From NCBI GenBank assembly GCA_020348985.1, contig CP070761.1:2712109-2739286 (forward strand): DNA of 27,178 bases. The letters run 5' to 3'. Source of the DNA: Candidatus Thorarchaeota archaeon (GTDB taxonomy: Archaea > Asgardarchaeota > Thorarchaeia > Thorarchaeales > Thorarchaeaceae). Below, in pieces: positions 1,271-27,114 of the stretch (position 1 is the stretch's first letter; each line of letters opens with the position of its first letter). A model generated the notes under the pieces. The model saw only the letters and a program-made list of their open reading frames with translations. It was not told the DNA's origin and searched no databases. Position numbers and translations under genes: made by a program.

Positions 1271-1300
1271 TGCTCCCTCGATATCAAACGTGAGCGATTG

Positions 1301-2503: not shown

Positions 2504-2507
2504 CTTG

Positions 2508-3563
2508 ATGAGAGTCGTAGGTCTGGACATCGGAGGAGCGAATGTCAAGGGATGCGGAATCTCAATCGATGTGTCTGGGGAACTATCAGGAGTCATTTCT
2601 GTTTCTCATGACTTTCCTATTTGGCTGCGCGACAGACTTCAGCTCTGGGGTCTTCTTGAAGAGTCCATTGAGTATCTTGCTGAAAGAATGAAGCCTGATA
2701 TGGTCTCGGTTGTGATGACTGCGGAACTCTCGGACACATTTTCAACAAAGCGTGAAGGAGTTTTGACGATTGTCGAAGGACTGGAAGAGATTCTTGATAG
2801 TGAATCTCTTCTGTTCCCCACGGTGGATCTTGAGCTATTCAATTTGGAGCAAGCAAAGGTCAACCCCCTTTCTATTGCTGCGGCGAATTGGCCAGCACTT
2901 GCATGGGCAGTTGGCAGGAAAGTTTCTGAATGTCTGTTGATTGACATAGGTTCCACTACAACGGATATTATTCCGATTTCTGACGGTCTTCCCCAGACAT
3001 TCGGCAGTGATGACACGTCACGGTTGACCCATGGAGAGCTAGTCTACACAGGCGCACTAAGGACTGACCTCCCAGCGATAGTAAAGTTCGTCAACATAGA
3101 CGGCAACAAAGTTCGAGTATCATCAGAACGCTTTGCGTTTTCGGCTGACGTCCATCTTGTCCTGTCCAACATAACTGAAAGCCAGTATACGTGCGACACA
3201 GCTGATGGTCGTGGAAAGACGGTGGAGGAGAGCGCAGCACGAATAGCACGATTGGTGTGCGGGGACATTGAGTCTTTGACCAAAGAACAGATCCTTTCAG
3301 TAGCAAGTCAAGTCTATGAACATCAGCTCATTGACATTGCAGATGGTGTGAAGCAGGTCATCAACGAACACGAGCTTCCTTCAGACTGCCCTGTCATTCT
3401 CTCAGGTTTGGGTGCCTACTTCCTAGGACGCCCTGCTGCCGAGAAGACGAATCTTGGCAGTCAGCACAGTGTTCAAGAGGTTCTGGGTATAGACGAGAAT
3501 GTTGCAGAGACCGCATACGCGTGTGCATTGTTTGCTGGTTTGGCAAAGAGTGATGACCAATGA
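2508..3563 (+). CDS. mfnF: MfnF, hydantoinase A/oxoprolinase-family coupling enzyme of methanofuran biosynthesis
   Basis: GLDIGGANVK, VVMTAELSDTF..KREGV, AAANW, IDIGSTTTDIIPI, GELVYTG.LRT, TADGR. Start moved to ATG 2508 behind GGAGT at 2496-2500. Confidence 0.9.
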   Translation: MRVVGLDIGGANVKGCGISIDVSGELSGVISVSHDFPIWLRDRLQLWGLLEESIEYLAERMKPDMVSVVMTAELSDTFSTKREGVLTIVEGLEEILDSESLLFPTVDLELFNLEQAKVNPLSIAAANWPALAWAVGRKVSECLLIDIGSTTTDIIPISDGLPQTFGSDDTSRLTHGELVYTGALRTDLPAIVKFVNIDGNKVRVSSERFAFSADVHLVLSNITESQYTCDTADGRGKTVEESAARIARLVCGDIESLTKEQILSVASQVYEHQLIDIADGVKQVINEHELPSDCPVILSGLGAYFLGRPAAEKTNLGSQHSVQEVLGIDENVAETAYACALFAGLAKSDDQ

Positions 3564-4213
3564 TTATTGTGATTAAGATTGGCGGAAGCTTGTTGGATGA
3601 TCCATTCAACGTCAAAGTCAGAGCTCTAGCGCGAGCTGTTTCAAATCTGGGTAGGACGGGTGACCATACTTGCGTTCTTGTTCCAGGCGGAGGTCCATTT
3701 GCTGATATTGTGAGGAACACTCAGGCTAAGCTAGATCTTGCAGATGAAACGGCTCACTGGATGGCGGTCTTGAGCCAGAATCAATATGGCCTCATTCTCT
3801 CGGAACTCCTGCCTGAAGCCAACATCGTGGAGTCGATGAACCAAATCAATGAGCTCCAATGGCCTGGAGTTCATATTCTTCTGCCGTACGATTTGGTCAG
3901 ACAGACTGACGAGTTGCCTCACTGCTGGGATGTGACAGGAGACAGTATAGCACTCTGGATTGGTATACTGACCAATGCAGACTATGTTGTTCTTCTTAAG
4001 AGTGTTGATGGAATCTTCCAGAAGGGGGCTCTGATTTCTGAAGTGCGCGCTGACGAGCTTGAGGTAAAAGATGAAGCCCGAGTTCTGGATTCGCATCTCC
4101 CGAATCTTGTAGGTAGATTCCTTGGAAGAATTGTGGTCATGAATGGTGGAAAGCCCAGCCTCTTGGAGAAACTCGTTACTGAGGGGGTTGTCGAGGGTAC
4201 CAAAATCATCTAG
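3560..4213 (+). CDS. mfnE: [5-(aminomethyl)furan-3-yl]methyl phosphate kinase (amino-acid-kinase family)
   Basis: VIKIGGSL, VPGGGPFAD.VR, AHWMA, LPHCWDVTGDSIA, KSVDGI; ATGA overlap with the mfnF stop. Confidence 0.85.
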   Translation: MIIVIKIGGSLLDDPFNVKVRALARAVSNLGRTGDHTCVLVPGGGPFADIVRNTQAKLDLADETAHWMAVLSQNQYGLILSELLPEANIVESMNQINELQWPGVHILLPYDLVRQTDELPHCWDVTGDSIALWIGILTNADYVVLLKSVDGIFQKGALISEVRADELEVKDEARVLDSHLPNLVGRFLGRIVVMNGGKPSLLEKLVTEGVVEGTKII

Positions 4214-4214
4214 A

Positions 4215-4925
4215 TCATGCTAGAAGGCTCTTGAGGGCCGCGACCAACTCGCCATCCACCCTTCCGTCTCTTCTGTCGTTTTCCCTGAGTGCTGCTCCTC
4301 TCACTCCTACGGTGTGAGGGCGAAGATTGATGGCACGCCTGAAGGAATCTCCAGAGAGTGATCCTGCCAGGGCGAATTCAATTCCGTGTTCATTTGCCTG
4401 GTCAATCAGTTTCTTTATGTTCGCCTCAGATTGAAACTCGAAAAGGCTCCTCCCATCTTTGACCGCCGTGTCCAGCATCATCACGCTTGCGCCGGATTCC
4501 AGTGCGACGTGTGGAAGTAATGTGGGATTAAGTGTACCAGCTCGTTCATAATCCCCATAGGCGCACGCTACTACTCTCACATTTGGATGAAACTCATTCA
4601 GCGTAGAACAGACTGACCTCATCACCGTGACTGCTTCAGAGCTGTCCTTTGGCCCGTGCAAACCAATCTTGACATAATCCGCCCCTGAAACTGCCGCGCC
4701 TAAGGCTGCTTGGGCCACAGTCCCGGGAAGATATGGAACATCGCCCACAGCAGCACTCACAGGAATCTCTGGCGGGATCGTTTCCCGAATCCTCTTGATG
4801 AGAGACGGCAACGCAGCACCGAGTGACCCTTCTGATGGATTTTTGACATCGATGATGTCCGCACCAGCCTCCACTGCAACTAGTGCGTCCCTCTCATCGG
4901 TCGGAGTCACGAGCAGCTTAATCAT
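4215..4925 (-). CDS. mfnB: (5-formylfuran-3-yl)methyl phosphate synthase (4-HFC-P synthase)
   Basis: IIDVKNPSEGSLGA, SAAVGD, DYVKIGL, MLDTAVKDG, LAGSL, GVRGA. Start moved to ATG 4925 (MIKLLVTP), matching the family N-terminus. Confidence 0.92.
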   Translation of the reverse strand: MIKLLVTPTDERDALVAVEAGADIIDVKNPSEGSLGAALPSLIKRIRETIPPEIPVSAAVGDVPYLPGTVAQAALGAAVSGADYVKIGLHGPKDSSEAVTVMRSVCSTLNEFHPNVRVVACAYGDYERAGTLNPTLLPHVALESGASVMMLDTAVKDGRSLFEFQSEANIKKLIDQANEHGIEFALAGSLSGDSFRRAINLRPHTVGVRGAALRENDRRDGRVDGELVAALKSLLA

Positions 4926-5036
4926 GTCTGATTCGTAAACGACGGGAAACAATCATCTTAATGTTTGCTTCGCTGTTTGCGGACACACGCACACTCCGAT
5001 AACATCTTAGGTCGGTCTTCCGGCACACAACCTGCA

Positions 5037-9820: not shown

Positions 9821-11347
9821 ATGAAATCAGAAGACTGGGATTGGATAGGTGACTGGGCTGGCAGAAGAGCAATACTGACCCCCAAAAAAGAAGCCGTCTT
9901 TGACTCTGTCAGGAAGCGTAGGTTCAATTTCGCAGAAGTTGACTCCAGAGCAAATCAGCTTGCACGCGTTCTAATGAACCAGGGCATTGAAAAGGGAGAC
10001 CGAATCGCCGTCTATGCCAAGAATAGGTTCGAGTACTTTGATTTCTTCTTTGCCTCTGGGAAAATCGGCGCGGTTCTCGTTCCGCTCAATATCCGACTTG
10101 TCCCGAGAGAGCTTGAGTTCATGATTCGGAAAACAGGTCCATCACTCATTGTCTACGACTCTGATTTGAGTGAGCCATTCTCCTCATTGAGGGATTCATT
10201 TAAGGACACTGCGAGGATGGTCATGGGTGACAAAGCGATTTCTTCTGACAAATCTGTTGAACACCTGTTGACGAAAGTGTCATCGAATCCAGTAGAGCGT
10301 CCTCAACTTGCTTTCGATGATCCTTGTATGGTCATCTTCACAGGAGGAACCACTGGACTTCCCAAAGGCGCAATCCTTTCGCATCGTCTCGTCTTCTGGA
10401 ATTCTACAAACACACTGGTGTCCTGGGGTATTCGGCCGGATGATGTTCAACCGCTGCTGTTTCCTCTGTTTCACACAGGCGGCTGGAATGTTTTGGTCAT
10501 ACCATTCTTCCATATGGGCGGTCGCACAATCATCATGGGTGATTTTGATGCAAACGAGACTCTCCGTGTAATCGAATCTGAGAAGTGCACAATCGTCATT
10601 GGAGTTCCTACAATGTTTAACATGATGTCTCAGGCGAAGAGCTTCGAAGACGCAGACTTTGGCTCAGTTAGGGTGTTCATCAGTGGAGGAGCACCTTGCC
10701 CCGTTGCCATTATGGAGAAGTATTGGGCAAGAAACAAGCCGTTCAAAATGGGATATGGTCTTACAGAAGTCGGCCCAAACAACTTCTATCTACCTGAGGA
10801 TAATATCAAACGGAAGCCTAAATCAGTTGGATTCCCGGTTTTTCACAGTGACACAAAGATTGTCGACGCTGAGAACATGGAAGTGCCTGTTGGCAAAGTC
10901 GGTGAGTTGCTTCTGAGAGGACCTCATATCTTCTCGGGCTATTGGGATGAGCCTGATGAGACCTCGTCCGCAATAGAATCAGATGGTTGGGTCCATACCG
11001 GCGACCTTGCTTCAGTTGACGAAGAGGGATTCTACTACATAGTCGGACGCAAGAAGGAGATGTGGATTAGTGGCGGGGAGAACGTTTTTCCGTCAGAGAT
11101 TGAAGAGATTCTCTATCAACACCCGGCTATTCTTGAGGCAGCTGTCATAGGCATCCCTGACGACTTCTGGGGTGAGGTCGGAAAAGCATTCCTCGTGCTG
11201 AAGGAAGGCCTTTCGTTATCGGAAGAGGAGATTCGTGAATATCTTACTGTGAGACTAGCGAAGTACAAGATTCCCAAGCATTATGAATTCAGAGAGACCC
11301 TGCCGAAGAGTGCGGCAGGCAAGATTCTCAAACGCGACCTTCTATAG
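9821..11347 (+). CDS. Acyl-CoA synthetase / AMP-dependent ligase (long-chain or aryl acid type)
   Basis: FTGGTTGLPKG, PLFHTGG, GYGLTE, HTGD, GRKKEMWISGGENV, PKSAAGKILK. Confidence 0.92.
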   Translation: MKSEDWDWIGDWAGRRAILTPKKEAVFDSVRKRRFNFAEVDSRANQLARVLMNQGIEKGDRIAVYAKNRFEYFDFFFASGKIGAVLVPLNIRLVPRELEFMIRKTGPSLIVYDSDLSEPFSSLRDSFKDTARMVMGDKAISSDKSVEHLLTKVSSNPVERPQLAFDDPCMVIFTGGTTGLPKGAILSHRLVFWNSTNTLVSWGIRPDDVQPLLFPLFHTGGWNVLVIPFFHMGGRTIIMGDFDANETLRVIESEKCTIVIGVPTMFNMMSQAKSFEDADFGSVRVFISGGAPCPVAIMEKYWARNKPFKMGYGLTEVGPNNFYLPEDNIKRKPKSVGFPVFHSDTKIVDAENMEVPVGKVGELLLRGPHIFSGYWDEPDETSSAIESDGWVHTGDLASVDEEGFYYIVGRKKEMWISGGENVFPSEIEEILYQHPAILEAAVIGIPDDFWGEVGKAFLVLKEGLSLSEEEIREYLTVRLAKYKIPKHYEFRETLPKSAAGKILKRDLL

Positions 11348-11420
11348 ATTCCTACTCAGATAACCGAGAAATCCTTTTCAAATCACAAATTCTCGAATTA
11401 TAGAGAGGAGACGTCAAGCA

Positions 11421-13700
11421 GTGGACAGTCAGAGGCGTATGTTGACAAAGGTCATCATAGTGGTTCCACTAGCAATCTTGGCCACTTTCTTGGCTATTGA
11501 AGGAGCCCAGATTGTCTCAAATTCAAACACAACACGTGTCGGAGTGCACTCACTGCTTGCCTATTGGATATCAATACCTGCGGCTGTAAGTGTTCTAGCC
11601 AGTCGAAGACGATCCGCCTCTGGTGAGCTAGTATTCGTCTCTGCTCTCATAGTTCCGGTTGTGATCCACATCGGCAATGCAATGTACTTCCTACTGCAAT
11701 CCAGCAGCGAGATTTTCGTGATGTCTCCTTACGATACAATTGCAGACATCACCGAACTCACAATGCTCGGGTTGCTGTTTGCACTGGCTTCACTTCTTTG
11801 GACAGACTCCCGCCAATCCAGAGGCAACATAACTCAAATCGGCATAGTGGCCAGTGCGATACTTGTTCCTCTTGTAGTTCAGGGTGCAACCTGGAGTTTA
11901 GTACTTCCCAGCTTGAATTCATCATCTCTAGTAGTGTTCGGAGTTGTAACAGCAGCCATTGGCGCCTTTACCTGCTTTTCTGCCGCTCTTCTCTGTCCGA
12001 ATATAACGAGTAGTGAGTTGGAGATTGATTCCGGTTATTTGATGAGCAGTCTCCTCCTCATGGGGATCTCTTCTCTAATTCTGGGCATCATGATGATGTC
12101 CCCATCGGATGTTTGGATTATAGCAGAGGATCTGCAGATTGCATCATTCTTCTTGATTGCGCTTTCTATAGGTGTGCCGTTTCTGAAGGCTGCGGGATTC
12201 GGGCGAAGAACGGCCTACGTGATGATTATTGGTCTCGCCCTTCTTGCGTACCTGCCGTTTCTTGTTACAATCATCATAGAGTCGCTAGAACTTTATGTTC
12301 TATTAGAACCATTAAACCGACTGGCCTACTCGATTATTCATCTTGGCGCCGGTTCCTTGTCAGCTATGATGGCATACTTGCTGTATGCCTATTCGAAGAG
12401 GCACCCCTCAAGAAACCATTATCCATTGATTCTGACTTTCGGTGTCTGGACCGGAGTGGCCTTAGTTTCAGTATCCTCCGTTTTACTTCCGGATTTCAGT
12501 CCATTAGGCGAGCCGATTGTCCCCTATGTAGTAGGCAGTCTACTCACGTTGCCACTACTATATCTAGCCATTCGATGGACTCACCAGTTCTCAGAAGGTA
12601 GGACTCGCATGCTGCCCAGCTCTTCGGTTTTGATTGGATTCATTCTCCTATTTGTTACAATCTTGATTGGAGAGATAACCAACCAGTTGGTTCTTCAGAG
12701 GTACGGTGAGCTGAGTGGGCATCCTGCAAGTAACGCAATCCTATTGGCCTCCAACCTTCTAGCGATGTTTGCTTTCACTTATCTTGTATTGCTCTTGGCT
12801 CGTGAGGCAAAAGGGAGTCTCACCATTGAGATCTACGTGGTTGGCTTCCTGTCAATGTGGGTTATTCCAAATGTCTTGAAGTCATACTATCCAAGGTGGA
12901 CGCCAGGATGGTGGGTGTCAGAGATACTCATCTTCATCGGTCTTCTGGTTGGGCCTGGACTTCTAGGACTCCTTTACGCGAGGGCCATGCGGGAAGCAGA
13001 AGAGTCTCACTCACGGGCAAGTCTATACGCTGATCTAATGATGCATGACATTACCAACTACAACCAAATGACCATGACCGCTTTGGAGCTGCTTGGTGCT
13101 GAGGGTGTGCCTGACGAGGTCAGAGAGCGACTGGCCCGAGATGCTCGTCAGATTATATCTCTATCAGAACAGCTCATCAGCAACGTGCGTCTTCTCAGTC
13201 GCACAGAGAGCCACGAAGAGAGGACACTTGAACCAATGGACCTAGTTCTTGCAGTTGTAGGAGCCCTTGACGATGTGACGCAGGAAGTCGGAAGTGAGAA
13301 TGTAAGAGTTCAGTTCAAGCCAGAGCGTCACCAAGCCTATGTTATGGCAAATGAGAATTTGATTCATGTCTTCATCAATCTTCTCATCGACTCTTTACAG
13401 CATCCTCCAGAAAAGAAGACAATCTCTGTGGAAATCTCACCCAGCACTGTGAACGGCCAGGATTGGTGGCAGGTAAGATTTGGCGTGCCTGGTCGCTGGA
13501 TTGAACACAATAACCGTCCTACGCTCTTTGACCGAGAAGTTGGGAGCTACAGCGGAAGTGCATTGGGACTCCTGGTTGCAAGGCTTTTGGCTGAATCTCT
13601 TGGTGGAGTCGTGACGATGGAGGACAGAATACTCGGGGAGCTTTTCAAAGGAACTGTTTTTGTTGTGTCCTTACCTGCCTACAAAAAGCCCATTTGCTGA
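11421..13700 (+). CDS. Multi-pass membrane histidine-kinase-like protein with a degenerate HATPase domain
   Basis: About 14-16 hydrophobic segments over the first ~520 aa; H-box YADLMMHDITN; C-terminal HATPase-like region with G2 (GSALGL) and GTVFVVSLP, but altered N and G1 boxes. ATG 11439 is an alternative start. Confidence 0.8.
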   Translation: MDSQRRMLTKVIIVVPLAILATFLAIEGAQIVSNSNTTRVGVHSLLAYWISIPAAVSVLASRRRSASGELVFVSALIVPVVIHIGNAMYFLLQSSSEIFVMSPYDTIADITELTMLGLLFALASLLWTDSRQSRGNITQIGIVASAILVPLVVQGATWSLVLPSLNSSSLVVFGVVTAAIGAFTCFSAALLCPNITSSELEIDSGYLMSSLLLMGISSLILGIMMMSPSDVWIIAEDLQIASFFLIALSIGVPFLKAAGFGRRTAYVMIIGLALLAYLPFLVTIIIESLELYVLLEPLNRLAYSIIHLGAGSLSAMMAYLLYAYSKRHPSRNHYPLILTFGVWTGVALVSVSSVLLPDFSPLGEPIVPYVVGSLLTLPLLYLAIRWTHQFSEGRTRMLPSSSVLIGFILLFVTILIGEITNQLVLQRYGELSGHPASNAILLASNLLAMFAFTYLVLLLAREAKGSLTIEIYVVGFLSMWVIPNVLKSYYPRWTPGWWVSEILIFIGLLVGPGLLGLLYARAMREAEESHSRASLYADLMMHDITNYNQMTMTALELLGAEGVPDEVRERLARDARQIISLSEQLISNVRLLSRTESHEERTLEPMDLVLAVVGALDDVTQEVGSENVRVQFKPERHQAYVMANENLIHVFINLLIDSLQHPPEKKTISVEISPSTVNGQDWWQVRFGVPGRWIEHNNRPTLFDREVGSYSGSALGLLVARLLAESLGGVVTMEDRILGELFKGTVFVVSLPAYKKPIC

Positions 13701-13777
13701 ACTATTCCTGCAGTACGTTAGACTTATTCATGGGATACACTAACCTTTCACAAGTCTAATCCCTTGGAGTCGTTAGT

Positions 13778-14800
13778 TTGCAGTTACAGCAGATCGGTAT
13801 AGAGTCAATTGGAGTCTACATACCTAGTGAGCGGCACACCGCAGAGTACATCTCTGAAATGTCCGGGACACCAGTTGAGATTCTCAAAGCAAAAATGGGC
13901 CTGTTCAGTAAAGCAGTCCCTGGACCTGATGATCACACTGTTGCGATGGGTGTCAATGCAGCCAAGGTTGCGATTGAAAGAGCGGGCTTGACTCCCGAAG
14001 AGGACATTGACCTGGTAATCTGGGCGGGAGAAGTGCACGCAGAGCACCCAATGCAGACATATGCAATAAAGTTTCAGAATGAGGTTGGTGCGACAAAGGC
14101 GTGGGCTTTCGACGTCAACCAACGATGTGGAACGTTTATCGTTGGCATGATACTGGCCAAGTCATTGATGATCACCCAAGGCTACAAGAGAGTCCTGATT
14201 GGCAGCGGCTATAGGAATTCGGATTTGATTGACTACACAAACATCCGGACGCGATTCATGCATGACCTGGCTGCAAGTGGCGTAGCCATGATTTTGAAAG
14301 CGGACCATCCTGAAAACGTGATATTGGAAGGTAGCGTCATATCCGACGGACGATTCTCAGAGGACGTTTATGTGCCGGCTGGCGGAACAGTTCAGCCAAT
14401 GAGCTGTGAGGCGCTGGAGAAACGCTTGAACTATCTGGATGTGACGGACCCTGCGGCATTGAAGAAGCGACTTGACGAGTTGTCGATGCAGAACTTCCTA
14501 AGAGTCGTCGACGATTCTCTGAAACAGAGTGGATACTCGAGAAAAGACATCGATTATCTGGGATTGATCCGCATGAAACGAAGTGCGTTCGAGTTTGTCG
14601 CAAACGAGTTGGGAGTTGATCCATACGAGCAATCAACATACTTCACCGAATACGGTCACATGGGCCAAAACGATGCAGTTGTATCCTTGGAGGAGGGTCT
14701 CCGAGATGGGAGGATAAAGGATGGAGACATAGTTGTCCTTACTGCTGCGGGGATTGGATGGTCCTGGAACGCCATAACAATCAAGTGGGGACCTGCGTGA
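13778..14800 (+). CDS. KAS III (3-oxoacyl-ACP synthase III)-fold enzyme with a non-canonical active site
   Basis: GIESIGVYIP, AWAFDVNQRCG (Cys117), YLGLIRMKRSA, YGHMGQND, GDIVVLTAAGIGWSW; TTG start after GGAGT. Confidence 0.88.
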   Translation: MQLQQIGIESIGVYIPSERHTAEYISEMSGTPVEILKAKMGLFSKAVPGPDDHTVAMGVNAAKVAIERAGLTPEEDIDLVIWAGEVHAEHPMQTYAIKFQNEVGATKAWAFDVNQRCGTFIVGMILAKSLMITQGYKRVLIGSGYRNSDLIDYTNIRTRFMHDLAASGVAMILKADHPENVILEGSVISDGRFSEDVYVPAGGTVQPMSCEALEKRLNYLDVTDPAALKKRLDELSMQNFLRVVDDSLKQSGYSRKDIDYLGLIRMKRSAFEFVANELGVDPYEQSTYFTEYGHMGQNDAVVSLEEGLRDGRIKDGDIVVLTAAGIGWSWNAITIKWGPA

Positions 14801-14815
14801 GAAGGAGGAGAAGCA

Positions 14816-15238
14816 ATGAAAGCTACAGAATACGAGGACATTGAGATTGGGCAGAGTGCAGAAGTCGTACGTACGATTACAGAAGATGACATCCAGACTT
14901 TCGGTGACTTGAGCGGTGACTACAATCCTCTTCACTTTGATGAAGAATGGGCTAAGACCACAATGTTTGGCAGCAGGATAGCACATGGTATTCTGACTGC
15001 CGCGTTCATCAGCACAGCGATAGGCATGAAGCTGCCCGGACCAGGGACAATCTACATGAGTCAGAAGATGAGATTCATGGGTCCCGTACGTATTGGTGAT
15101 ACAGTCACAGCCAGAGTGGAAGTCGTTCAAAAGGACGACACCAAGAAACGGATAACCCTGTCAACTGTCTGCACAAACCAGGATGGCGAAGTTGTCCTTG
15201 ATGGTGAGGCTCTAGTAACGCTCATGAAAATGGAGTAG
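14816..15238 (+). CDS. MaoC-family hotdog (R)-specific enoyl-CoA hydratase (PhaJ-like)
   Basis: FGDLSGDYNPLH (Asp/His dyad), RIAHG, LPGPGTIY, F..PV.IGDTV; strong SD AAGGAGG; 15 nt after the KAS III-fold gene. Confidence 0.92.
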   Translation: MKATEYEDIEIGQSAEVVRTITEDDIQTFGDLSGDYNPLHFDEEWAKTTMFGSRIAHGILTAAFISTAIGMKLPGPGTIYMSQKMRFMGPVRIGDTVTARVEVVQKDDTKKRITLSTVCTNQDGEVVLDGEALVTLMKME

Positions 15239-18410: not shown

Positions 18411-18467
18411 AAAAAAGAGATGCCTTATGGTTGTTTTCATGCTCCTGAGTTGCTTCCGCAAACTCAG
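18411..18467 (-). terminator. Putative terminator of the acyltransferase gene
   Basis: Minus-strand hairpin CUGAGUUUGC-GGAA-GCAACUCAG (18467-18445) overlapping the stop, followed by UCUCUUUUUU (18420-18411). Confidence 0.5.
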
Positions 18468-19864
18468 CTATGGATGAGCCCTCTAAGGATCTCCTCTGCT
18501 TTGTTGCGGATCTTTCTCATGTTCTCACCATCAACATAGCCATGAAGATGATTGAATGTGATTGTCAGTCTGCCACCCACGGTTATGACACCAAGAACGA
18601 TGTCAAATCCCATACCTGAAGTTGGCGCAAAGAAAGCCCTTTCGACTCGAATCCCCGGAACATCATTTGGCAATTCTATTCTTCCGAGATTGGTACTCAT
18701 GATGTCTGGTGTATTGCTTGCCATTCTTGCAATGAACTTTGCAGCTAAGCTTTCTTTCCGACCCGAGTATTCAGTCAGCTTCTCATGTCGGCTCTGATGC
18801 GGTTCAATCTGGTCACCAATGGATGAGATTACCATAGCATCCAGCAGTGTTTGGTCTAGGACGAAGTGATCTGAGACAGTGCCGAAGACATTGTTCTCGT
18901 CTAGATCCTTGGTGACAATCTTGTGATAGACTCGAACGTTTTCCCAGAAGGTTGCGTTCTCTTTGTAGTCGAGTTGGACAGATGATCCACCTGCATAGAA
19001 GCCAACTGCGTCACTGCAATCAACGCGCAATCTCTTTCTTGTGTCCACTGCTGTGGCAACCCTGGCTTTGCGATCATATGAGCCCACAGCTTCGATCCTT
19101 GCCCTAAGAATGGCCACTAGTATTGTGGAGTTGAGAGTGACATCATTTGCTCTGGAGACCTGGACAAGACTATTGGTTTCAATCTCATCAAACTCCATAA
19201 CTTCGTAGACATAGTGGGTGTTCTTCCAGGTTGCCTCCCAGATATTCAGCAAGTCTTCCTCGTCGAACAGTATTCTTTCCTTTGCCCACTTCTTGTTGAT
19301 GCGACCAATCATAGTGGACCTAAACCTGCCCATTGCCAGACCCTCTGGGAAGATTTCAGGTGTATGTGAGGGGGCTTCCCGTACCACTGGCGGCTCTCGG
19401 CCAGGATCCTTAAGGTGCAGTAGGATTTCTCTAAGGGCAAACTGGAGAGACCGGCCATCGCTAATCATGTGATGGCTCATTGCAATGAGTTCGGAAACAT
19501 CACTTCCCATCACGAGAACGAATCGTGTCAACGGACCAACCGATGGTCTCATCGGAATAGCAAACTCATGATTCAACACAGACATCCAGCTGTTGTCCGA
19601 AACCCTGGGGTGAACTTTCACGGGAACCTTGGCAGCACCCTCAGTCGTTGACCATTTGACACGCTCTTCGTTCCATTCCACTCTCACTCCAAATAGAGGA
19701 TAGGTCACAAGAAGCTTCTCAACCGCTTTCTCCATGGCTTCTCTAGTCACATGGCCTCGAAATCGCAAAACCAGTGAGATGAATGACGCCGGAGAAAACA
19801 GAAAGCGCCGTTCCTGACTTGTGATTTCTCGCTTGTATGGTATAATCTCTTGAGTAGTAGTCAT
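18464..19864 (-). CDS. Stand-alone condensation-domain / CoA-dependent acyltransferase (PapA5, alcohol acetyltransferase or WS-DGAT-like fold)
   Basis: SHHMISDGRS (HHxxxDG), YPLFGVRV, GPLTRFVL, SRANDVTLNS, AVDTRKRL, STNLGR, VITVGGRLTITF; 466 aa with no A or T domains. Confidence 0.82.
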   Translation of the reverse strand: MTTTQEIIPYKREITSQERRFLFSPASFISLVLRFRGHVTREAMEKAVEKLLVTYPLFGVRVEWNEERVKWSTTEGAAKVPVKVHPRVSDNSWMSVLNHEFAIPMRPSVGPLTRFVLVMGSDVSELIAMSHHMISDGRSLQFALREILLHLKDPGREPPVVREAPSHTPEIFPEGLAMGRFRSTMIGRINKKWAKERILFDEEDLLNIWEATWKNTHYVYEVMEFDEIETNSLVQVSRANDVTLNSTILVAILRARIEAVGSYDRKARVATAVDTRKRLRVDCSDAVGFYAGGSSVQLDYKENATFWENVRVYHKIVTKDLDENNVFGTVSDHFVLDQTLLDAMVISSIGDQIEPHQSRHEKLTEYSGRKESLAAKFIARMASNTPDIMSTNLGRIELPNDVPGIRVERAFFAPTSGMGFDIVLGVITVGGRLTITFNHLHGYVDGENMRKIRNKAEEILRGLIHS

Positions 19865-19881
19865 TTACTTCGAGTATTACT

Positions 19882-19914
19882 ATATTTCGTAACTTTTAAA
19901 TATTTGCGAAATAT
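19882..19914. promoter_or_regulatory. Inverted-repeat operator enclosing a bidirectional TATA box
   Basis: ATATTTCGTAA-N11-TTGCGAAATAT (10/11 symmetric); the spacer holds palindromic TTTAAA (19895-19900), 30 nt from both ATG 19864 (-) and ATG 19931 (+). Confidence 0.7.
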
Positions 19915-19930
19915 GCAATATCATGACAGA

Positions 19931-21067
19931 ATGACACTAGAAAAGATCAAACGCGAATTCGTTGACTACATGGAAAGGTCACGTGCTACCGAACCATATC
20001 CTCGTAAGTTCTTCGGGTGTTTGATTTCCATTATAATCGAAACTGAACCAACTAGTCAAGAACGAATTATGGAGTTGACCGGGTACTCTCAAGCAGCAGT
20101 CTCCCTGATACTCCAGAGAATTCAACTAGTAATGCCACTTAAGACTACACGAAAACTAGGAGATCGAAAACACTACTACGCATATGAGGGAACTCTTGAA
20201 GGTTTCATTCTCGATCTTTGGCAGAGGCGTCTAGAGGCGCAGGCCATTGACCCTGTACTTGTTGAAACAATGCTGCAGAAGGTCCGGAAAAAGGTTGACA
20301 ATGATCACGTCTTCGTGCGGTTCTTGGACTACCTTCAAAATGTTCAGCTCTACATGATTCTGGTTCAGGAAATGCGAAATGCTGCAATTGAGACATTCAG
20401 ACATGCCTCAGACACAGGATCTTTTGATACCCTGAGTCTTCAGGATGCTGAAGTTTTGGAGAAGGGGACGCTAGCAGACTTCCTGAGTATCTTCAGAGCG
20501 GCATCACTTGAATCTGATATTAACGATTCATGTTACGAAGATGCCTTGGAAGACTACACGCTTCTAAAGAGCGAGTACTTCACGAGCATAAAGACAAATC
20601 TTCCATCCCTCTATTCTCAAGCAGTTGCCAACCAGATTGTTGTGTTGCATGCTGTGATGCTTGATGGTTGTACCACTCAAGAAAGATTGGAGAAATCAAC
20701 TCTTCTTCCTAGAAGTACCATTTCTGAAGTGCTTGCGCAATCAGTGAGGGCGGGGATCGTAGAGGTCGTCAAAAAGGAGGGTTCACGAACAAAGTTGTAT
20801 CGTTCTAGGATTTCATTCGTTGGGTTTATGCTCAACTACTATGACCGTCTAGAGAGACAAGTGTCGGAAGGAACCGCGCGAATCTCAGAGTTCATTCAGT
20901 CCACTCGAAAGATACGTCCACAAACCAGCGATACGAAGAAGTTTCTAGATACTCTAAAGCGCCTTGAGAAGGCCTACTCATTCACTTTGAGGTTCTCCGA
21001 AAGCTCGAAGGTAGAAATGGTTACCAGACTAAGAGAAGAATATGCGCGTGGATTCGAGTTTGTTTAA
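19931..21067 (+). CDS. Transcriptional regulator with two GbsR/MarR-like winged-HTH units
   Basis: Unit 1 TSQERIMELTGYSQAAVSLILQRI...KLGDRKHYY; unit 2 TTQERLEKSTLLPRSTISEVLAQSVRAGIV...KEGSRTKLY. Start moved to ATG 19931, which removes the overlap with the divergent gene. Confidence 0.75.
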   Translation: MTLEKIKREFVDYMERSRATEPYPRKFFGCLISIIIETEPTSQERIMELTGYSQAAVSLILQRIQLVMPLKTTRKLGDRKHYYAYEGTLEGFILDLWQRRLEAQAIDPVLVETMLQKVRKKVDNDHVFVRFLDYLQNVQLYMILVQEMRNAAIETFRHASDTGSFDTLSLQDAEVLEKGTLADFLSIFRAASLESDINDSCYEDALEDYTLLKSEYFTSIKTNLPSLYSQAVANQIVVLHAVMLDGCTTQERLEKSTLLPRSTISEVLAQSVRAGIVEVVKKEGSRTKLYRSRISFVGFMLNYYDRLERQVSEGTARISEFIQSTRKIRPQTSDTKKFLDTLKRLEKAYSFTLRFSESSKVEMVTRLREEYARGFEFV

Positions 21068-21104: not shown

Positions 21105-21143
21105 AAAAAAAAGGAGAAGAGGGAAGGCTCGAATCGAACCTTC
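21105..21143 (-). terminator. Putative terminator of the solute-binding protein gene
   Basis: Minus-strand hairpin GAAGGUUCG-AUU-CGAGCCUUC (21143-21123), then CCUCUUCUCC and U8 (21112-21105). Confidence 0.65.
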
Positions 21144-22554
21144 ACCTTTTACGGAACCAGACTACTGCAATTATGACGACAACTAAAACTACGCCAACAA
21201 CCACCGAGATAGTTACGAGATCAAAGGCCGGTTGAATTGGTGTGTAGTTCGTGTCAATAGGAGGTGCAACTGAATTGCGGTCGAGAGTTTCAACCAATTT
21301 GGCAATGATGAAACCTTCAGTCTCAGATCCAGATTCGTTGTCACGCCAAGCTTCCGCGATATACATTTCCGCAAGCCCTTGATGGTCCGCTGGCCGTAGG
21401 TACGTTGATCCCTTCGGCGCGTTTATAGTAATGCCGCTTTCCAAGTACGTTATCATCGACATGCTGTCCAGACTAGGCACAGCATTTGTGACATCTACCA
21501 GGAATTGGGCTGTTGCAAATGCACTTGCGGTAAACAGCTCAGGAACTCTGTACTGTAATCCAAAGGCACCATTGGGCCTTACGTTTCTGGCAACATGTTG
21601 TTCCACCATCCAATCATTTACATCATTGTCTGGCAACTGGTAGCCATACAGACAGAGCCCGGTAGCACCAACATAGGTCGCTGGTGGCGTCATACCCGCT
21701 TCAATTATGTTCATTGAAAGTATGTCGATACATGCTCCAGCGATTTCCATGCTGTCCGCAATATTATACGTACCAAAGTCAGCGTACATTTCCGCGAAGC
21801 TTCCTGCCCAGATCACAAACAGATAGTCAATTCCAGTGGATGCATCTGCAGCAAGTATATTGGTCAACTCCGGACTGAAATCAGTTGTACCAAGAGCCGC
21901 ATATTCCTCGATAACCACAGTTCCACCTTTTTCCTCAATTACAGCTTTCATTGATTCAACGCCACTGTAACCAAAGGAATAGTCTGCTGCAAGAAAGGCG
22001 AAATTCGTATGACCAAGGGTGTCCATGGCATAAGTAACCCCTGCGTATGCATCATGCCAGTTGTTTCTCGCTATTCGGAAAACATACTGATTGAGCAACG
22101 ATCCAGTAAGCGATGCATCTGCAGCTGGGGTTATGAAGAACAGCTTCTCGTATGTTTCGGCAATAGGTACAAGGGCTGCAGCTACACTACTATAGGTGGC
22201 TCCAACCAGAATGTCAATGCCATCTGTTTCTATCGCGGTCGTCGCCAGTGATGCTGCTTCGGTCACATCACCCTTTGTGTCATAGTAGTGAAACTCGTAG
22301 TCTCGACCGGCTTGAGTCTTGTTCTCGTTGTCATACCCCATCTCCGTTGTAGCATATATCATTCCAAGTTCGAAGCCCTGTTTTGTCCATGGTGCATAAA
22401 ACGAAAGACTAGCTGTTGTGAAGGGAGCAAAGATTCCGATCTTGATTGGATCTGTGTCTTGAGCAACAGCTGGTGTATACATGAAACAGGGTAGGAACAT
22501 GGATACTATCAATAGCGCGGAGAAGGAGATTGTAAACACTCTCATCCTATACAT
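21142..22554 (-). CDS. LivJ/HAAT-type (periplasmic binding protein type 1) ABC substrate-binding protein with signal peptide and C-terminal membrane anchor
   Basis: Signal peptide ending in TPAVA-QD; PIKIG, YDTKGD...A, DILVGATYSSVA, PAADASLTG, YVFR, AADYSFG, TTDFSPEL, APKG...LRPADHQ; C-terminal VTISVVVGVVLVVVIIAVVW-FRKR. Start ATG 22554 after GGAG. Confidence 0.88.
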   Translation of the reverse strand: MYRMRVFTISFSALLIVSMFLPCFMYTPAVAQDTDPIKIGIFAPFTTASLSFYAPWTKQGFELGMIYATTEMGYDNENKTQAGRDYEFHYYDTKGDVTEAASLATTAIETDGIDILVGATYSSVAAALVPIAETYEKLFFITPAADASLTGSLLNQYVFRIARNNWHDAYAGVTYAMDTLGHTNFAFLAADYSFGYSGVESMKAVIEEKGGTVVIEEYAALGTTDFSPELTNILAADASTGIDYLFVIWAGSFAEMYADFGTYNIADSMEIAGACIDILSMNIIEAGMTPPATYVGATGLCLYGYQLPDNDVNDWMVEQHVARNVRPNGAFGLQYRVPELFTASAFATAQFLVDVTNAVPSLDSMSMITYLESGITINAPKGSTYLRPADHQGLAEMYIAEAWRDNESGSETEGFIIAKLVETLDRNSVAPPIDTNYTPIQPAFDLVTISVVVGVVLVVVIIAVVWFRKR

Positions 22555-22718
22555 GTTCTCTACTCCAATAGCATTGCCCCGTGTTTGGGCGACGCTAGAC
22601 TCACAGGCATAGAGCATCTATGCCAACCTTCGATAATTGGGTTCTAGACTATATATCTCTTGAGGAACCTAGGCCTGAAGAGGTAATCAAAACTAAGAGC
22701 CATATCATGAAGAGCTTG

Positions 22719-23513
22719 CTACGAGGAATGCTTCTGCAAGAAACTCAGAACTATCCTATTGAATTCGTCAGGCTTCTCAAATGTGACAGCATGTCCCGAG
22801 TCTGGAATAATGGTCATTTCGGAATTGGGTAGAAGATCATGAATCAACTTTGAATATGGATAAGCTGGTTTCAGTATATCCTTCTCACCAGCAATGACAC
22901 AAGTCGGTGTCTTGATTTGTGGCAATTGGTCTGTGATATTAAGCTTCAGAAAGGCATCAAGCAGATTCACCAGTGCGGGATACTCCAGCTGGGTATAGCG
23001 TTGTCTTGCCGCTTCTAGTAGAACAGTGTTCTCCTCAATGAAGGTTTCTCTGAAATTGAGTGGTACTGTGGCATAGTAGAACAATTCAGGGTCTCCAAGC
23101 ACACAGACGTATCTCCATAGCTGACACATGTTGTAAAGCAATGGTCCAACAAATGAAACCGCGCTGCATACAACGAGGCTCTTCAACAATTCAGGATACT
23201 TCAACGCAAAGACTAGGCCCAATTCGCCTCCGTAGCTGATTCCGACATGGTGAGCTTTGAAGACACCGAGGCTTTCCAGAAGGGCCTTTTGATCATCTGC
23301 ATGGAGATCGAAAGAGTATGGGCCATCCGGCTTGCCACTTTGTCCTTGTCCTCGCATATCATACAAAATCATCTGATAGTCCTTGGAGAACGCTGGTTGC
23401 TGATTCACCCAGCCCAGAGTATTGGAGAAGACACCATTTCCGAAGACTACTGGTTCACCGTCTCCATGGATCTCGTAGTATATGTCAATTCCATTTACCT
23501 TCTCGAATGGCAT
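22719..23513 (-). CDS. Alpha/beta hydrolase (esterase, lactonase or thioesterase-like)
   Basis: YDMRGQG, GISYGG nucleophile elbow, GEKD, SGHAV..EKP; starts 2 nt after the upstream ligase stop. Confidence 0.9.
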   Translation of the reverse strand: MPFEKVNGIDIYYEIHGDGEPVVFGNGVFSNTLGWVNQQPAFSKDYQMILYDMRGQGQSGKPDGPYSFDLHADDQKALLESLGVFKAHHVGISYGGELGLVFALKYPELLKSLVVCSAVSFVGPLLYNMCQLWRYVCVLGDPELFYYATVPLNFRETFIEENTVLLEAARQRYTQLEYPALVNLLDAFLKLNITDQLPQIKTPTCVIAGEKDILKPAYPYSKLIHDLLPNSEMTIIPDSGHAVTFEKPDEFNRIVLSFLQKHSS

Positions 23514-23515
23514 TG

Positions 23516-25066
23516 CTACTCCTCTTCCTGACCAAAGTCTTCCTGCAATCTCCTCTTCAATATCTTCCCTGCTGCTGAGATGTATGGTGTGAAACTATCC
23601 ACAAAGACGACCGATTTGGGGATTTTGAATTTGGCCAGTTTACCACTACAGAATTCGATTATCTCATCTCCAGTGGCATCTTGTCCTGAATCAAGGACTA
23701 TAATGGCACGTCCTACTTCGCCCCATTTTGAATCAGGCACGCCTATCACCTGTACTTGTGAAATCTTCGGGTGTTGTTCCAGCAGCTTCTCAATCTCTCT
23801 TGGATAGACATTTTCGCCCCCAGAGATGAACATGTCCTTGACCCGGTCTACTACGAAGTAGAAACCTTCGTCATCGAAGTAGACCATATCTCCGGTTCTG
23901 AACCAACCATCATCATCCAAGAGAGTCCTGTTCAGCTCCGGGCGGTTCCAATAGCCTATTGTGACAGTGGGGCCTTTGAACAAGAGCTCACCAACTTCAT
24001 TTGCACCGCACTCCTTTCCAGTTTCTGGATCTACCACCTTTGCATCTATGAAGAAGTTAGGTGTACCTATACTGCCTATTTTCCTCTCGGCATGCCAAGT
24101 ATCGAGAGCAAAGCAGCCAGGTCCAACTTCTGTCATTCCAAAGCCCTGTTTGAATTTGACACCGTGGGTCTCTCGGTATGTTGCGATGATATCCACTGGA
24201 AGAGGTTCACCACCTGATGTCAAGAAACGAACGCTGCTGAAATCAATTGATTCGAAATTAGGATGGTTCATGAGCATTCTGTATTGTGTGGGCACAGCAA
24301 AGAAGAAACTGGGATTCTCCGTATTGACTATCTCTATCAGTTTATCTAGATCCCAGCTCTTCATCTGCACCACCTTCCCCCCAAGTATGAAGAGGGGAAT
24401 TGCATAGACGTAGAGTCCTCCCACATGAAACAATGGCAGATGGTTAATGTAGACATCACCAGGGAGGATGTCCCGAATTGTACTCAAAGTATTGAATGCG
24501 ACCTGTCGGTAGGTAATCATTGCACCTTTTGGTAATCCTGTCGTACCTCCGGTGAAGACGATACCCATGGGATCTTCATAGGTGAGAGTGACTGGGTTGG
24601 GTGGACTGGTTGGCGCATTACTCATCAGGTCTTCGTAGACAAGAGAATCTTTCACGCCCGCTACCTCTGAATTCAGAGTGAACCAATTGTCAACGGCAAC
24701 CTCTTGTTGCAACTCAGATGCAACGCCGGCCAAATTCCTATCATAGAATAACACGGACGGAGCAAGATCAGTGATTAGGCCTGCCAATTCTCGGGCCACC
24801 AATCGCCAGTTAAGTGGGCTGAATATTCCTCCACACTTCTGACATCCAAAGAAGGCCTCCCAATATTCCAGGCTATTATGAGCTAGAATGGCTAGACGAT
24901 CTCCTTTCTTGAATTTCACAGTCTGCTGAAGGACGTTGGCAACCTGGTTCGCTCTCTCGTTGAATTCTCGATATGTCCGCCTCTTGCCAGTTTCCGCATC
25001 AACCAGAGCTTCAGCCTCCGGGGAGAAGACTTCCCTCTTCGACATGAAATCGAATTGACTAACCAC
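23516..25066 (-). CDS. Acyl-CoA synthetase / AMP-dependent ligase (second paralogue)
   Basis: FTGGTTGLPKG, PLFHVGG, GFGMTE, RTGD, DRVKDMFISGGENV, SAAGKILK; GTG start after GAGGG. Confidence 0.92.
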   Translation of the reverse strand: MVSQFDFMSKREVFSPEAEALVDAETGKRRTYREFNERANQVANVLQQTVKFKKGDRLAILAHNSLEYWEAFFGCQKCGGIFSPLNWRLVARELAGLITDLAPSVLFYDRNLAGVASELQQEVAVDNWFTLNSEVAGVKDSLVYEDLMSNAPTSPPNPVTLTYEDPMGIVFTGGTTGLPKGAMITYRQVAFNTLSTIRDILPGDVYINHLPLFHVGGLYVYAIPLFILGGKVVQMKSWDLDKLIEIVNTENPSFFFAVPTQYRMLMNHPNFESIDFSSVRFLTSGGEPLPVDIIATYRETHGVKFKQGFGMTEVGPGCFALDTWHAERKIGSIGTPNFFIDAKVVDPETGKECGANEVGELLFKGPTVTIGYWNRPELNRTLLDDDGWFRTGDMVYFDDEGFYFVVDRVKDMFISGGENVYPREIEKLLEQHPKISQVQVIGVPDSKWGEVGRAIIVLDSGQDATGDEIIEFCSGKLAKFKIPKSVVFVDSFTPYISAAGKILKRRLQEDFGQEEE

Positions 25067-25138: not shown

Positions 25139-26149
25139 TTACCACCATCGTAGGACCGCAGCAGCCATGTTGAATCCTCCTCCTGACGAACAGAGTGCAA
25201 CATACTCTCCGTTTCCCTGTCCTGGAGGTGGGAGCTTTCCTTGATCGATGGCATCGTACATCGCCAAGGCAATACATGCTGAACCAGTATATCCCCATTT
25301 GTCCATGACATTGTGAGTCCTCTCAAGGGGCATGCCTAGTTCATGCATAACGGCCTCAATAGTTCGTAGGTTAACCTGAGTGAAGAAGATCCAGTCAATA
25401 TCCTCGATTGAAAGGCCCGCTTTTGCTACGCAGTCTCTTGTCAGAATTGGCCAATGGTGAAGATTCGTGTCTGCAGGAAAGCGTTTGCGAAATGCTAGAT
25501 GATGTCTATGATTTTGGATTGCTTCAACTGTGGGTGGTTCTGCTGTTCCTCCCACGAAGACTCCCAGGTGGTCATGGAAAGAGCCATCGGCAATCAGTTT
25601 TGAGGCAATGAATCCTTCTTTTGTCTCATTGGCTCGCAGTATCATTGCTCCGGCAGCGTCAGCAAACAATGTACAAGTGTAATGATCAGTCCAATCGACA
25701 AACTTAGTCATTCCGTATGCACCGATTGCCAAGACTGAATCAATACTCGAGTCCGTTCTAATGTACCGAGAAGCTATGTCCAGAGATGTGACAAGACCAG
25801 CACACGCACAATTGACGTCGAAAGTCCCTGCATTCTTCGCACCGAGTTTGTGCTGAACCACCACGGATGTTGCTGGAGAAAGATAGTCCGGCGTGTCAGT
25901 GCTCAGAATGATTAAGTCAAGTTGATCGGCTTCCAATTCCGCATTCTCCAGTGCTTGAAGACCTGCATGCACTGCAAGGTCAGATGTCACCTCATCTTCA
26001 GCCATCACATGACGTTGTCTAATGCCAACGTTCTCTACCAGCCAATCTGCTGTTCCGGGACGATTTAGCATTTGCTCGATTTCTTCATTCGTCATCATCT
26101 TGTTAGGAACGTACATTCCCAACCCTGTGACCACTGCTGAAAGAACCAT
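25139..26149 (-). CDS. KAS III (FabH)-fold enzyme with a non-canonical active site
   Basis: VTGLGMYVP, GIRQR, STDTPDYLSPATS, FDVNCACAG (catalytic Cys), LFADAAGA, WIFFTQVNLR, WGYTGSAC, SSGGGF; ATG 26149 after GGAGGT (TTG 26152 is an alternative). Confidence 0.9.
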   Translation of the reverse strand: MVLSAVVTGLGMYVPNKMMTNEEIEQMLNRPGTADWLVENVGIRQRHVMAEDEVTSDLAVHAGLQALENAELEADQLDLIILSTDTPDYLSPATSVVVQHKLGAKNAGTFDVNCACAGLVTSLDIASRYIRTDSSIDSVLAIGAYGMTKFVDWTDHYTCTLFADAAGAMILRANETKEGFIASKLIADGSFHDHLGVFVGGTAEPPTVEAIQNHRHHLAFRKRFPADTNLHHWPILTRDCVAKAGLSIEDIDWIFFTQVNLRTIEAVMHELGMPLERTHNVMDKWGYTGSACIALAMYDAIDQGKLPPPGQGNGEYVALCSSGGGFNMAAAVLRWW

Positions 26150-26228
26150 CAATGATAACCTCCAAGTCTGATCATTAGAACAGATACTCTTCTCCTTCCC
26201 ATATCACCTTCACGGGCCTTGAATCGAT

Positions 26229-27047
26229 CTATCCTTTCTCCACGGAGTCTATAAATTCCATTACAGCATTGTTGACCTCTTCATACTTCTCAATAGTGAT
26301 GAAGTGTGATGCATTCTCTAGAATAATCAGTTTCGACTTGGGGATTGTCCTCGCCAACAACTCTCCATTCCTAGTAGGTACGGCAGAGTCACTATCCCCA
26401 TGGAGGATAAGTGTGGGAACCGTTACATTCCTCAATTCCGATTCAGAATTGAATTCACCTACTGCTGAAGATTGATGTACTTGTGCGTATAGTGGGGCAG
26501 GGTGCTGATTTGCCCACGTCTCCATTGACTCTATCAAAGACTTGCTTTCTTGGAGGAACTGTGAACTGAAGATTGCCCTAAAGCGCATCTCCGTGGCCTG
26601 CGCTCTAGAGATTGTCTCAGTGGGAATCGCGATTAACAAGGCCTTGGTCTTGTCATCTATAGGAACATGATTGGGTCCCCCAAAGTGGGTTGATACAAGA
26701 ATAAGACTTCGAACCCTTTTTGGATAGGAAATGGCGATTTGCTGTGCAATCAATCCTCCCATTGAGATTCCCAGGATGTGCGCTCTATCAATATCCAATG
26801 CATCCATCAGACCTACGACATCTTCAGCGAACATTTCAATTGAGTACGGATAGTCGGGCTTGGAGCTCCTTCCAGCTCCGCGATTATCAAAGACAACACA
26901 CCTGTATCGATTCCTGAATGCGGGAATCTGTCTGAACCATGTCCAACTGTAACTAGCCCACCCTCCAATCAGCACAAGTGGTGGTGCTTCAGGCGGTCCA
27001 TGAGTCTCATAGTAGATGTCGATTTCTCCTACGGGTTCATATGGCAA
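26229..27047 (-). CDS. Alpha/beta hydrolase (second paralogue)
   Basis: FDNRGAG, GISMGG, HGDSD, ASHF..EK. Start reassigned to TTG 27047 behind SD AGGTGA, giving MPYEPVGEIDIYYETHG, which parallels the other hydrolase (MPFEKVNGIDIYYEIHG). Confidence 0.9.
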   Translation of the reverse strand: MPYEPVGEIDIYYETHGPPEAPPLVLIGGWASYSWTWFRQIPAFRNRYRCVVFDNRGAGRSSKPDYPYSIEMFAEDVVGLMDALDIDRAHILGISMGGLIAQQIAISYPKRVRSLILVSTHFGGPNHVPIDDKTKALLIAIPTETISRAQATEMRFRAIFSSQFLQESKSLIESMETWANQHPAPLYAQVHQSSAVGEFNSESELRNVTVPTLILHGDSDSAVPTRNGELLARTIPKSKLIILENASHFITIEKYEEVNNAVMEFIDSVEKG

Positions 27048-27114
27048 TACTATCACCTACTTCCGGATTCGTTTTCCGTCTTGACGAAATCTTGATCATT
27101 CCTCCGAAATAATT

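Follow-up and report, generated by a model that had tools for sequence, protein, structure and literature searches.

A Thorarchaeota KAS III-fold protein with Thr and Tyr at the FabH His and Asn positions, encoded beside hydrolase, acyl-CoA ligase and solute-binding protein genes

What does a protein of the KAS III fold (β-ketoacyl-ACP synthase III; ACP stands for acyl carrier protein) do once the His and the Asn of the Cys-His-Asn triad are replaced by Thr and Tyr? The question is raised by a gene on the minus strand (25139..26149, 336 aa from ATG) of a 27,178-nt stretch of a Candidatus Thorarchaeota genome, here called the window (assembly GCA_020348985.1, contig CP070761.1, positions 2,712,109 to 2,739,286). 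Its product carries the name of a fatty-acid initiation enzyme and belongs to a clade defined by a Cys-Thr-Tyr set together with an Asp. A literature search on this clade, or on KAS III proteins of Asgard archaea, gave nothing relevant.

Residues at the catalytic positions

The longer open reading frame of the gene (25139..26152, minus) begins with TTG and encodes 337 aa, the next codon being the ATG at 26149. As the database record and all orthologues are 336 aa long and a GGAGGT motif is found 8 nt upstream, the ATG is the likely start; residues are nevertheless numbered along the 337-aa translation beginning at TTG 26152. The frame is unbroken, both KAS III Pfam domains are present (PF08545 with 79.4 bits and PF08541 with 79.1 bits), and the AlphaFold2 model adopts the FabH fold with a mean pLDDT of 97.4 and Foldseek TM scores of 0.86-0.91 to FabH structures, in agreement with the FabH-like, uninterrupted protein described in the initial annotation of this DNA.

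The phmmer search of all PDB chains returned 58 sequences at E <= 1e-10, with FabHs as the best matches (E ~1e-50). In the alignments to solved FabHs the motif FTQVN stands under PHQAN and GYTGSAC under GNTSAAS, and BLASTP against FabH of E. coli K-12 equates C112 with C117, H244 with T258 and N274 with Y288. By alignment, the nucleophile would be Cys117 (codon TGT, 25802..25804, minus), while Thr258 (ACT, 25379..25381, minus) and Tyr288 (TAT, 25289..25291, minus) occupy the positions of FabH His244 and Asn274. Both kinds of alignment thus confirm the replacement of His and Asn that had been read from the sequence alone. The catalytic Cys reported in FDVNCAC is likewise intact, and can be specified as the second Cys of the motif; Cys115 does not align with Cys112. 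It had also been considered that other His or Asn residues might fill the catalytic positions; pairwise and multiple alignments show none, and the clade alignments contain no conserved His anywhere.

With FabH (E. coli 1HN9/1EBL, Aquifex 2EBD and B. subtilis FabHA 8VD9) the protein shares the fold at 27-33% identity, the catalytic Cys, the GGG oxyanion loop, Gln259 and, in most clade members, Asn261. It differs in having Thr for His244, Tyr for Asn274, Asp for Thr81, Ser for Phe87, Ser for Phe304 and Cys for Ser279.

The clade, its pocket and the FabH label

Among the representatives, taken as the best 128 full-length sequences at 50% identity, Tyr stands at the Asn position in 18, with Thr at the His position in 17 of them; the others have His and Asn. 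The pattern scan of species-representative genomes detected at least 598 loci with the Cys-Thr-Tyr pattern, in hosts that include Thor-, Hod- and Heimdallarchaeota, Chloroflexota/Anaerolineae, Acidobacteriota, Myxococcota, Competibacter and Acetothermia; cluster look-ups added Thermofilum/Infirmifilum (Thermoproteota) and Caldisericia. Eight residues, namely D86, C117, N230, T258, Q259, Y288, G290 and C293, do not vary among 246 clade members (244 distinct) from at least seven phyla, and N114, W234 and S323 are nearly so. On the maximum-likelihood tree a single change from His/Asn to Thr/Tyr suffices, so that TQxN/GYT, suggested earlier as the possible mark of a conserved clade, does define one. 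The dN/dS ratio against Thorarchaeota orthologues is 0.05-0.06; together with the invariance in 246 members, this value indicates that the Thr/Tyr substitutions are due neither to chance nor to sequencing error, and it rules out a pseudogene.

The Asgard sequences form one group with 100% support, placed beside sequences of Chloroflexota and Myxococcota, and the Thermofilum representative (P0133) is found elsewhere in the tree, which settles neither the root nor the direction of transfer. A recent transfer into the Thorarchaeota genome was considered and rejected, as the GC content of the gene (0.48) equals that of the window and the Asgard sequences are held together in that single group.

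Mapping of the clade and of 108 His/Asn homologues onto E. coli FabH numbering revealed that, besides the triad, the pocket as a whole is rebuilt: (i) T81 becomes Asp and F87 Ser or Thr; (ii) M207 is replaced by Phe, A246 by Val or Ile and I250 by Thr; (iii) S276 becomes Gly, S279 Cys and F304 Ser; (iv) F213 is variable. The residues that hold CoA in FabH (W32, R36 and R151) and the ACP-docking R249 are each the commonest residue in the His/Asn homologues (107, 81, 100 and 92 of the 108, respectively) and are unconserved in the clade; the Thorarchaeota protein itself has W37, H157 and R263 at the positions of W32, R151 and R249. In M. tuberculosis FabH, Thr87 opens a long acyl channel, and the resemblance of the Ser or Thr at the F87 position to that enzyme hints at a larger acyl group. 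Space for the Tyr ring may be provided by G290, S323 and C293, the last being a second clade-invariant Cys (TGT, 25274..25276, minus) where FabH has Ser279.

The most informative residue gained by the pocket is Asp86 (GAC, 25895..25897, minus), found without exception in the clade; its counterparts in the alignments are Thr81 in E. coli FabH and the catalytic Glu in HMG-CoA (3-hydroxy-3-methylglutaryl-CoA) synthase. The catalytic set of the latter enzyme is Glu-Cys-His, with the Glu 32 residues ahead of the Cys. In a joint alignment Asp86 shares its column with the Glu in the GSES motif of the genome's own HMG-CoA synthase, which we take to be the catalytic base given the matching 32-residue spacing; across the two proteins the carboxylate precedes the Cys by 31-32 residues. 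A PRK06840-type paralogue encoded in the same window also has Glu in this column, and FabHs have Ser, Val, Ile or Thr. The account of the active site given in the initial annotation therefore holds for Cys-Thr-Tyr; it overlooks the gained Asp86 and the remodelling elsewhere in the pocket.

The protein scores 231.6 on the FabH model TIGR00747, below its cut-off of 292.1, and 257.6 on the subfamily model NF006829/PRK09352, above its cut-off of 249. Having passed the latter, it is named ketoacyl-ACP synthase III in the database, the kind of mislabelling as fabH that had been anticipated. The single-contig host genome (3.16 Mb, estimated 86% complete) gave no match to PP-binding/ACP (PF00550) or to FabD (PF00698), and its ketoacyl-synt matches are weak and confined to open reading frames of 390-402 aa, a thiolase length; one of them is the thiolase gene adjoining the HMG-CoA synthase gene. 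A true HMG-CoA synthase/thiolase pair is thus present elsewhere in this genome, as is a carboxyltransferase. Three Myxococcota genomes that carry the clade gene encode a separate, canonical FabH, which reaches 398-408 bits on TIGR00747, while their clade members reach 251-278 and stay under the cut-off of 292. The replaced triad, the unconserved ACP and CoA contacts, the missing ACP and FabD matches and the separate FabH of the three Myxococcota all bear out the earlier view that this is not an enzyme of fatty-acid initiation. The evidence says that the FabH label is wrong for the clade, and the gene product is very probably neither FabH (EC 2.3.1.180) nor decarboxylative.

Genes around the KAS gene

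The gene is the second in a co-directional run of five: hydrolase, KAS, ligase, hydrolase and Peripla_BP_6, with gaps of 79, 72, 2 and 101 nt. Upstream lies alpha/beta hydrolase 1 (26229..27056, minus), whose Ser98-Asp223-His251 set is invariant in orthologues. Downstream, an AMP-forming acyl-CoA ligase of the ANL family (23516..25066, minus), the most constant neighbour of the clade, is followed by alpha/beta hydrolase 2 (22719..23513, minus) with a GISYG nucleophile motif plus Asp and His, the Ser-Asp-His triad thus being retained by the hydrolases. The run ends with a Peripla_BP_6 solute-binding protein preceded by an N-terminal hydrophobic signal (21142..22617, minus).

The context sample comprised 80 fetched loci, 72 of them informative for ligase and hydrolase counts. 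An ANL ligase is encoded within 2.5 kb downstream of the KAS gene in 62 of the 72, the Acidobacteriota ligase being of a different, non-orthologous type, and in 38 the gene immediately upstream encodes an alpha/beta hydrolase. Other Thorarchaeota (L006-L016) have the same five genes together with a Liv-type ABC permease (11 of 11 loci) and an ATPase (7 of 11). In Hodarchaeota (L017) one operon contains, successively, the solute-binding protein, an MBL-fold protein, livGFHM, hydrolase, KAS, ligase, hydrolase, a second ligase, a second KAS (KAS2) and MaoC. The order in Thermofilum adornatum is ligase, hydrolase, hydrolase, livGFHM, KAS and solute-binding protein. In Caldisericia it is hydrolase, hydrolase, KAS, SDR, solute-binding protein, livGFHM, TetR and CoA-transferase, so that CoA-transferase and SDR stand in the ligase's place. 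Acidobacteriota encode a TonB-type outer-membrane protein, hydrolase, KAS, ligase, hydrolase, MaoC and an MFS transporter, and Acetothermia have an extra thiolase/DUF35 pair.

The constancy of importers suggests that the module processes an imported acid or ester, and the replacement of the ligase by a CoA-transferase in Caldisericia points to a CoA thioester as the KAS substrate. The substrate is accordingly probably an acyl-CoA, and a catabolic or salvage function of the module is somewhat favoured. Among solved proteins, the ligase is closest to a fatty-acyl-CoA synthase and a feruloyl-CoA synthetase, and hydrolase 1 to the esterase Est1. These matches are generic, and a hydroxycinnamate-type beta-oxidative shortening is therefore not claimed as the substrate route; the literature search on the ligands of PDB entries 3NND and 3N0X gave nothing relevant.

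The search for longer proteins yielded one complete hydrolase-KAS fusion of 624 aa (P0309, L079 7128..8999, on an Anaerolineae contig), which is weak evidence, and two KAS-ligase chimeras, both truncated and with the appearance of artefacts. The AlphaFold2 model of the fusion has two confident domains joined by a disordered linker (residues 267-284), with a pTM of 0.61 and no defined interface.

A second module is encoded on the plus strand of the window (9821..15238). It consists of a ligase (9821..11347), a 759-aa membrane protein (11421..13700) whose only Pfam match is a C-terminal HATPase_c, the PRK06840-type KAS III-like gene (13778..14800) and a MaoC hydratase (14816..15238). The third of these products reaches 415 bits on NCBIfam PRK06840 against a cut-off of 315; it keeps the Cys, and has Arg for the His, His for the Asn and a Glu at the base position of HMG-CoA synthase, a Glu/Cys/Arg/His set. 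The ligase, KAS2 and MaoC in the Hodarchaeota operon (L017), where they stand with the Cys-Thr-Tyr gene, are the counterparts of this module.

Several other genes were recorded in and around the window. A stand-alone condensation/PapA5-like acyltransferase with weak Pfam matches (18464..19864, minus) lies divergently to a gene for a 405-aa protein with a MarR-like winged helix-turn-helix (19850..21067, plus). The liv genes of the host genome are not adjacent to the run; three Liv permease pairs occur elsewhere, at about 0.34, 2.05 and 2.08 Mb. Upstream of the run, just past the window end, is an STT3/AglB gene (L086 1224..3317), and an OST3/OST6-like small protein (L086 6660..7082) is encoded near it, also beyond the window, beside glycine-cleavage H and T genes. 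At 1298..4952 the window holds ATP-grasp, hydantoinase_A-like, amino-acid-kinase-like and 4-HFC-P synthase (MfnB-like) genes, which look like methanofuran/methanopterin-type cofactor biosynthesis in an Asgard genome.

Proposed reaction and competing explanations

In FabH, the nucleophilicity of Cys112 is due to a helix dipole and not to His, and the H244A and N274A variants keep transacylation and self-acylation with the loss of decarboxylation. For these reasons the acylation of Cys117 would be expected to survive in the clade, and the decarboxylation of malonyl groups should be lost without the His/Asn pair. With a carboxylate at the base position of HMG-CoA synthase and two hydroxyl donors, enolate handling or carbanion protonation without the loss of CO2 would be expected.

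The reading preferred here, to which we give a probability of about 0.5, is that of a functional, thiolase-fold acyl-CoA enzyme, ACP-independent and non-decarboxylating, in an uptake-and-processing module for an organic acid or ester. In the proposed mechanism, Cys117 would take the acyl group from an acyl-CoA that the co-transcribed AMP-forming ligase supplies (in Caldisericia, the CoA-transferase), with the backbone oxyanion hole formed by the Cys117 NH and the GGG loop presumably retained. Acid/base function would fall to the invariant Asp86, which takes the place of HMG-CoA synthase's catalytic Glu, and the hydroxyls of Tyr288 and Thr258 would substitute for His and Asn as hydrogen-bond donors to the oxygen of the thioester or enolate. 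Most likely, a 3-oxoacyl-CoA would be cleaved by a thiolase-like retro-Claisen reaction, or formed by the reverse one, an HMG-CoA synthase- or OleA-like condensation being an alternative within the same reading; that the chemistry is specifically of this thiolytic or Claisen type, at a C-C bond, is a tentative proposal. The module would comprise two Ser hydrolases, the ligase, often MaoC and/or SDR, and an importer, and would be horizontally mobile; the MaoC, SDR and thiolase/DUF35 neighbours would fit a beta-oxidation-like shortening of the activated acid.

Each known enzyme closest to this proposal resembles the clade protein in part. HMG-CoA synthases (archaeal HMGCS 6ESQ, MvaS) share the superfamily, the carboxylate in the catalytic-Glu column and the non-decarboxylative chemistry expected here, whereas the clade protein has Asp instead of Glu and Thr instead of His, and scores well below the cut-offs of both HMG-CoA synthase models (NF003274, 68.6 against 244; TIGR00748, 44.3 against 353). 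OleA, a thiolase that joins acyl-CoAs head to head and uses a Glu base in a non-decarboxylative Claisen condensation, is also KAS III-like with a carboxylate base, and has alpha/beta hydrolase and ANL-family neighbours. In contrast to the clade, OleA retains Cys-His-Asn and receives its Glu from the partner subunit, and OleA structures match residues 21-143 only (E ~1e-13). The hydrolases and the ligase of the module differ from OleB and OleC in having a Ser nucleophile and in resembling fatty-acyl/feruloyl-CoA synthetases, respectively. An OleD-type reductase was not seen in the annotated clusters, in which no direct search for it was made, and no reductase is conserved adjoining the gene. 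Degradative and biosynthetic thiolases (Cys-His-Cys) have in common with the clade the superfamily fold, two invariant Cys and the CoA-thioester context; they differ in that Cys293 is off the thiolase acid/base position and the clade is without His, and the Thiolase_N match of 22.8 bits stays under the cut-off of 26.4.

Several points weigh against the preferred reading. We know of no other thiolase-superfamily enzyme that functions without His, and catalysis by Asp, Tyr and Thr is, to our knowledge, without precedent; the literature search found no biochemical data on any clade member. The closeness of Asp86, Tyr288, Thr258 and Cys293 to Cys117 is itself suggested by homology. The unconserved FabH contacts to the CoA adenine leave room for a non-CoA donor, and the importers adjoining the gene are compatible with the salvage of precursors for biosynthesis too. 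MaoC is found in about 30% of loci and SDR in 24 of 80, and acyl-CoA dehydrogenase is not conserved in the module, so that a full set of beta-oxidation-like enzymes is no general feature.

The main alternative, which we consider unlikely, is an acyltransferase or thioester hydrolase of the KAS III-like kind, functionally similar to CerJ, ChlB3 or ChlB6, in which Cys117 would be acylated from acyl-CoA and a hydroxyl, an amine or water would accept the acyl group with no C-C chemistry. Such an enzyme would be served by the retained Cys and oxyanion hole, by the loss of the decarboxylation pair and by the activated acyl group that the ligase supplies; a PapA5/condensation-type acyltransferase and hydrolases are encoded close by, and ChlB3 itself hydrolyses SNAC thioesters (PMC9573744). 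The CerJ/ChlB-type precedents named in the initial annotation are nevertheless not apt. CerJ, ChlB3 and DpsC do share with the clade a KAS III fold without malonyl decarboxylation, and work through an acyl-Cys (or acyl-Ser) intermediate. However, these enzymes depend on an essential His within a Cys-His-Asp or Ser-His-His set, the CerJ variant H295N being dead (PMC9573744), and the clade, with no conserved His, is therefore not of their type. No entry for the three proteins occurs among the 58 PDB sequences, where FabH, BioZ and PqsD are present. They also sit in natural-product clusters with ACPs, in contrast to the importer modules of the clade, and a simple acyl transfer needs no invariant carboxylate at the base position of HMG-CoA synthase.

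The second alternative, an obligate PqsBC-like heterodimer with the PRK06840-type KAS III in which the gene product is a non- or half-catalytic subunit, is improbable. Neither paralogue has the His/Asn pair, the replacements differing between them, and they lie 10 kb apart in the window, within one operon in the Hodarchaeota locus and together in several Anaerolineae loci. The co-occurrence of the clade gene with a partner KAS III-like subunit is, however, not constant as it would be for PqsBC: a PRK06840 match over the cut-off is absent in three Myxococcota carriers, the Thermofilum and Caldisericia modules have a single KAS gene within +/-8 kb, and the two genes are 100 kb apart in another Thorarchaeota genome. 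Unlike PqsB, the clade has a Cys of its own and a shell of invariant residues about the active site.

Slightly less probable still is a decarboxylative condensing enzyme that uses malonyl-CoA, with Tyr and Thr for Asn and His, in an ACP-independent pathway to fatty-acyl or ester lipids in Asgard archaea. The Tyr and Thr hydroxyls could in principle polarise the thioester carbonyl, the carboxyltransferase of the genome could make malonyl-CoA, and the neighbourhood also offers a MaoC dehydratase and a second KAS. However, the known decarboxylating ketosynthases all retain His together with a second His or an Asn, neither a ketoreductase nor an enoyl reductase accompanies the gene in a conserved way, and its constant partners are hydrolases, ligase and importers. 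The clade is, moreover, mostly bacterial, with a canonical FabH alongside it in the three Myxococcota checked, and the archaeal fatty-acid synthase described so far is a ketothiolase/DUF35 system and not a KAS III (bioRxiv 10.1101/2024.07.05.601840).

That the protein is an inactive relic, or a pseudoenzyme that serves only as structure, as might be thought with two of the three canonical catalytic residues gone, is highly improbable in view of a dN/dS of ~0.05, eight residues of the active-site region invariant in 246 sequences of several phyla, and synteny kept across domains.

Returning to the acyl-CoA enzyme preferred here, a further and somewhat more speculative proposal is that the clade may represent a catalytic class new to the thiolase superfamily and the first in it without any His, in which Asp and a Tyr/Thr pair would carry out ACP-independent, non-decarboxylative C-C chemistry on CoA thioesters. 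Under this proposal it would be the signature of an uptake-and-catabolism module exchanged horizontally among Asgard archaea, Thermoproteota and bacteria of at least five phyla. Culturable carriers exist in Thermofilum adornatum, Archangium, Pyxidicoccus and Chondromyces.

The FabH annotation of these genes is spread over hundreds of genomes; in archaea it suggests a bacterial-type fatty-acid synthesis and feeds arguments on the Asgard lipid divide. The clade marks a conserved and mobile module of importer, hydrolases and ligase, and, if Asp, Cys, Tyr and Thr are catalytic, it would provide a His-free solution to the chemistry of the thiolase fold.

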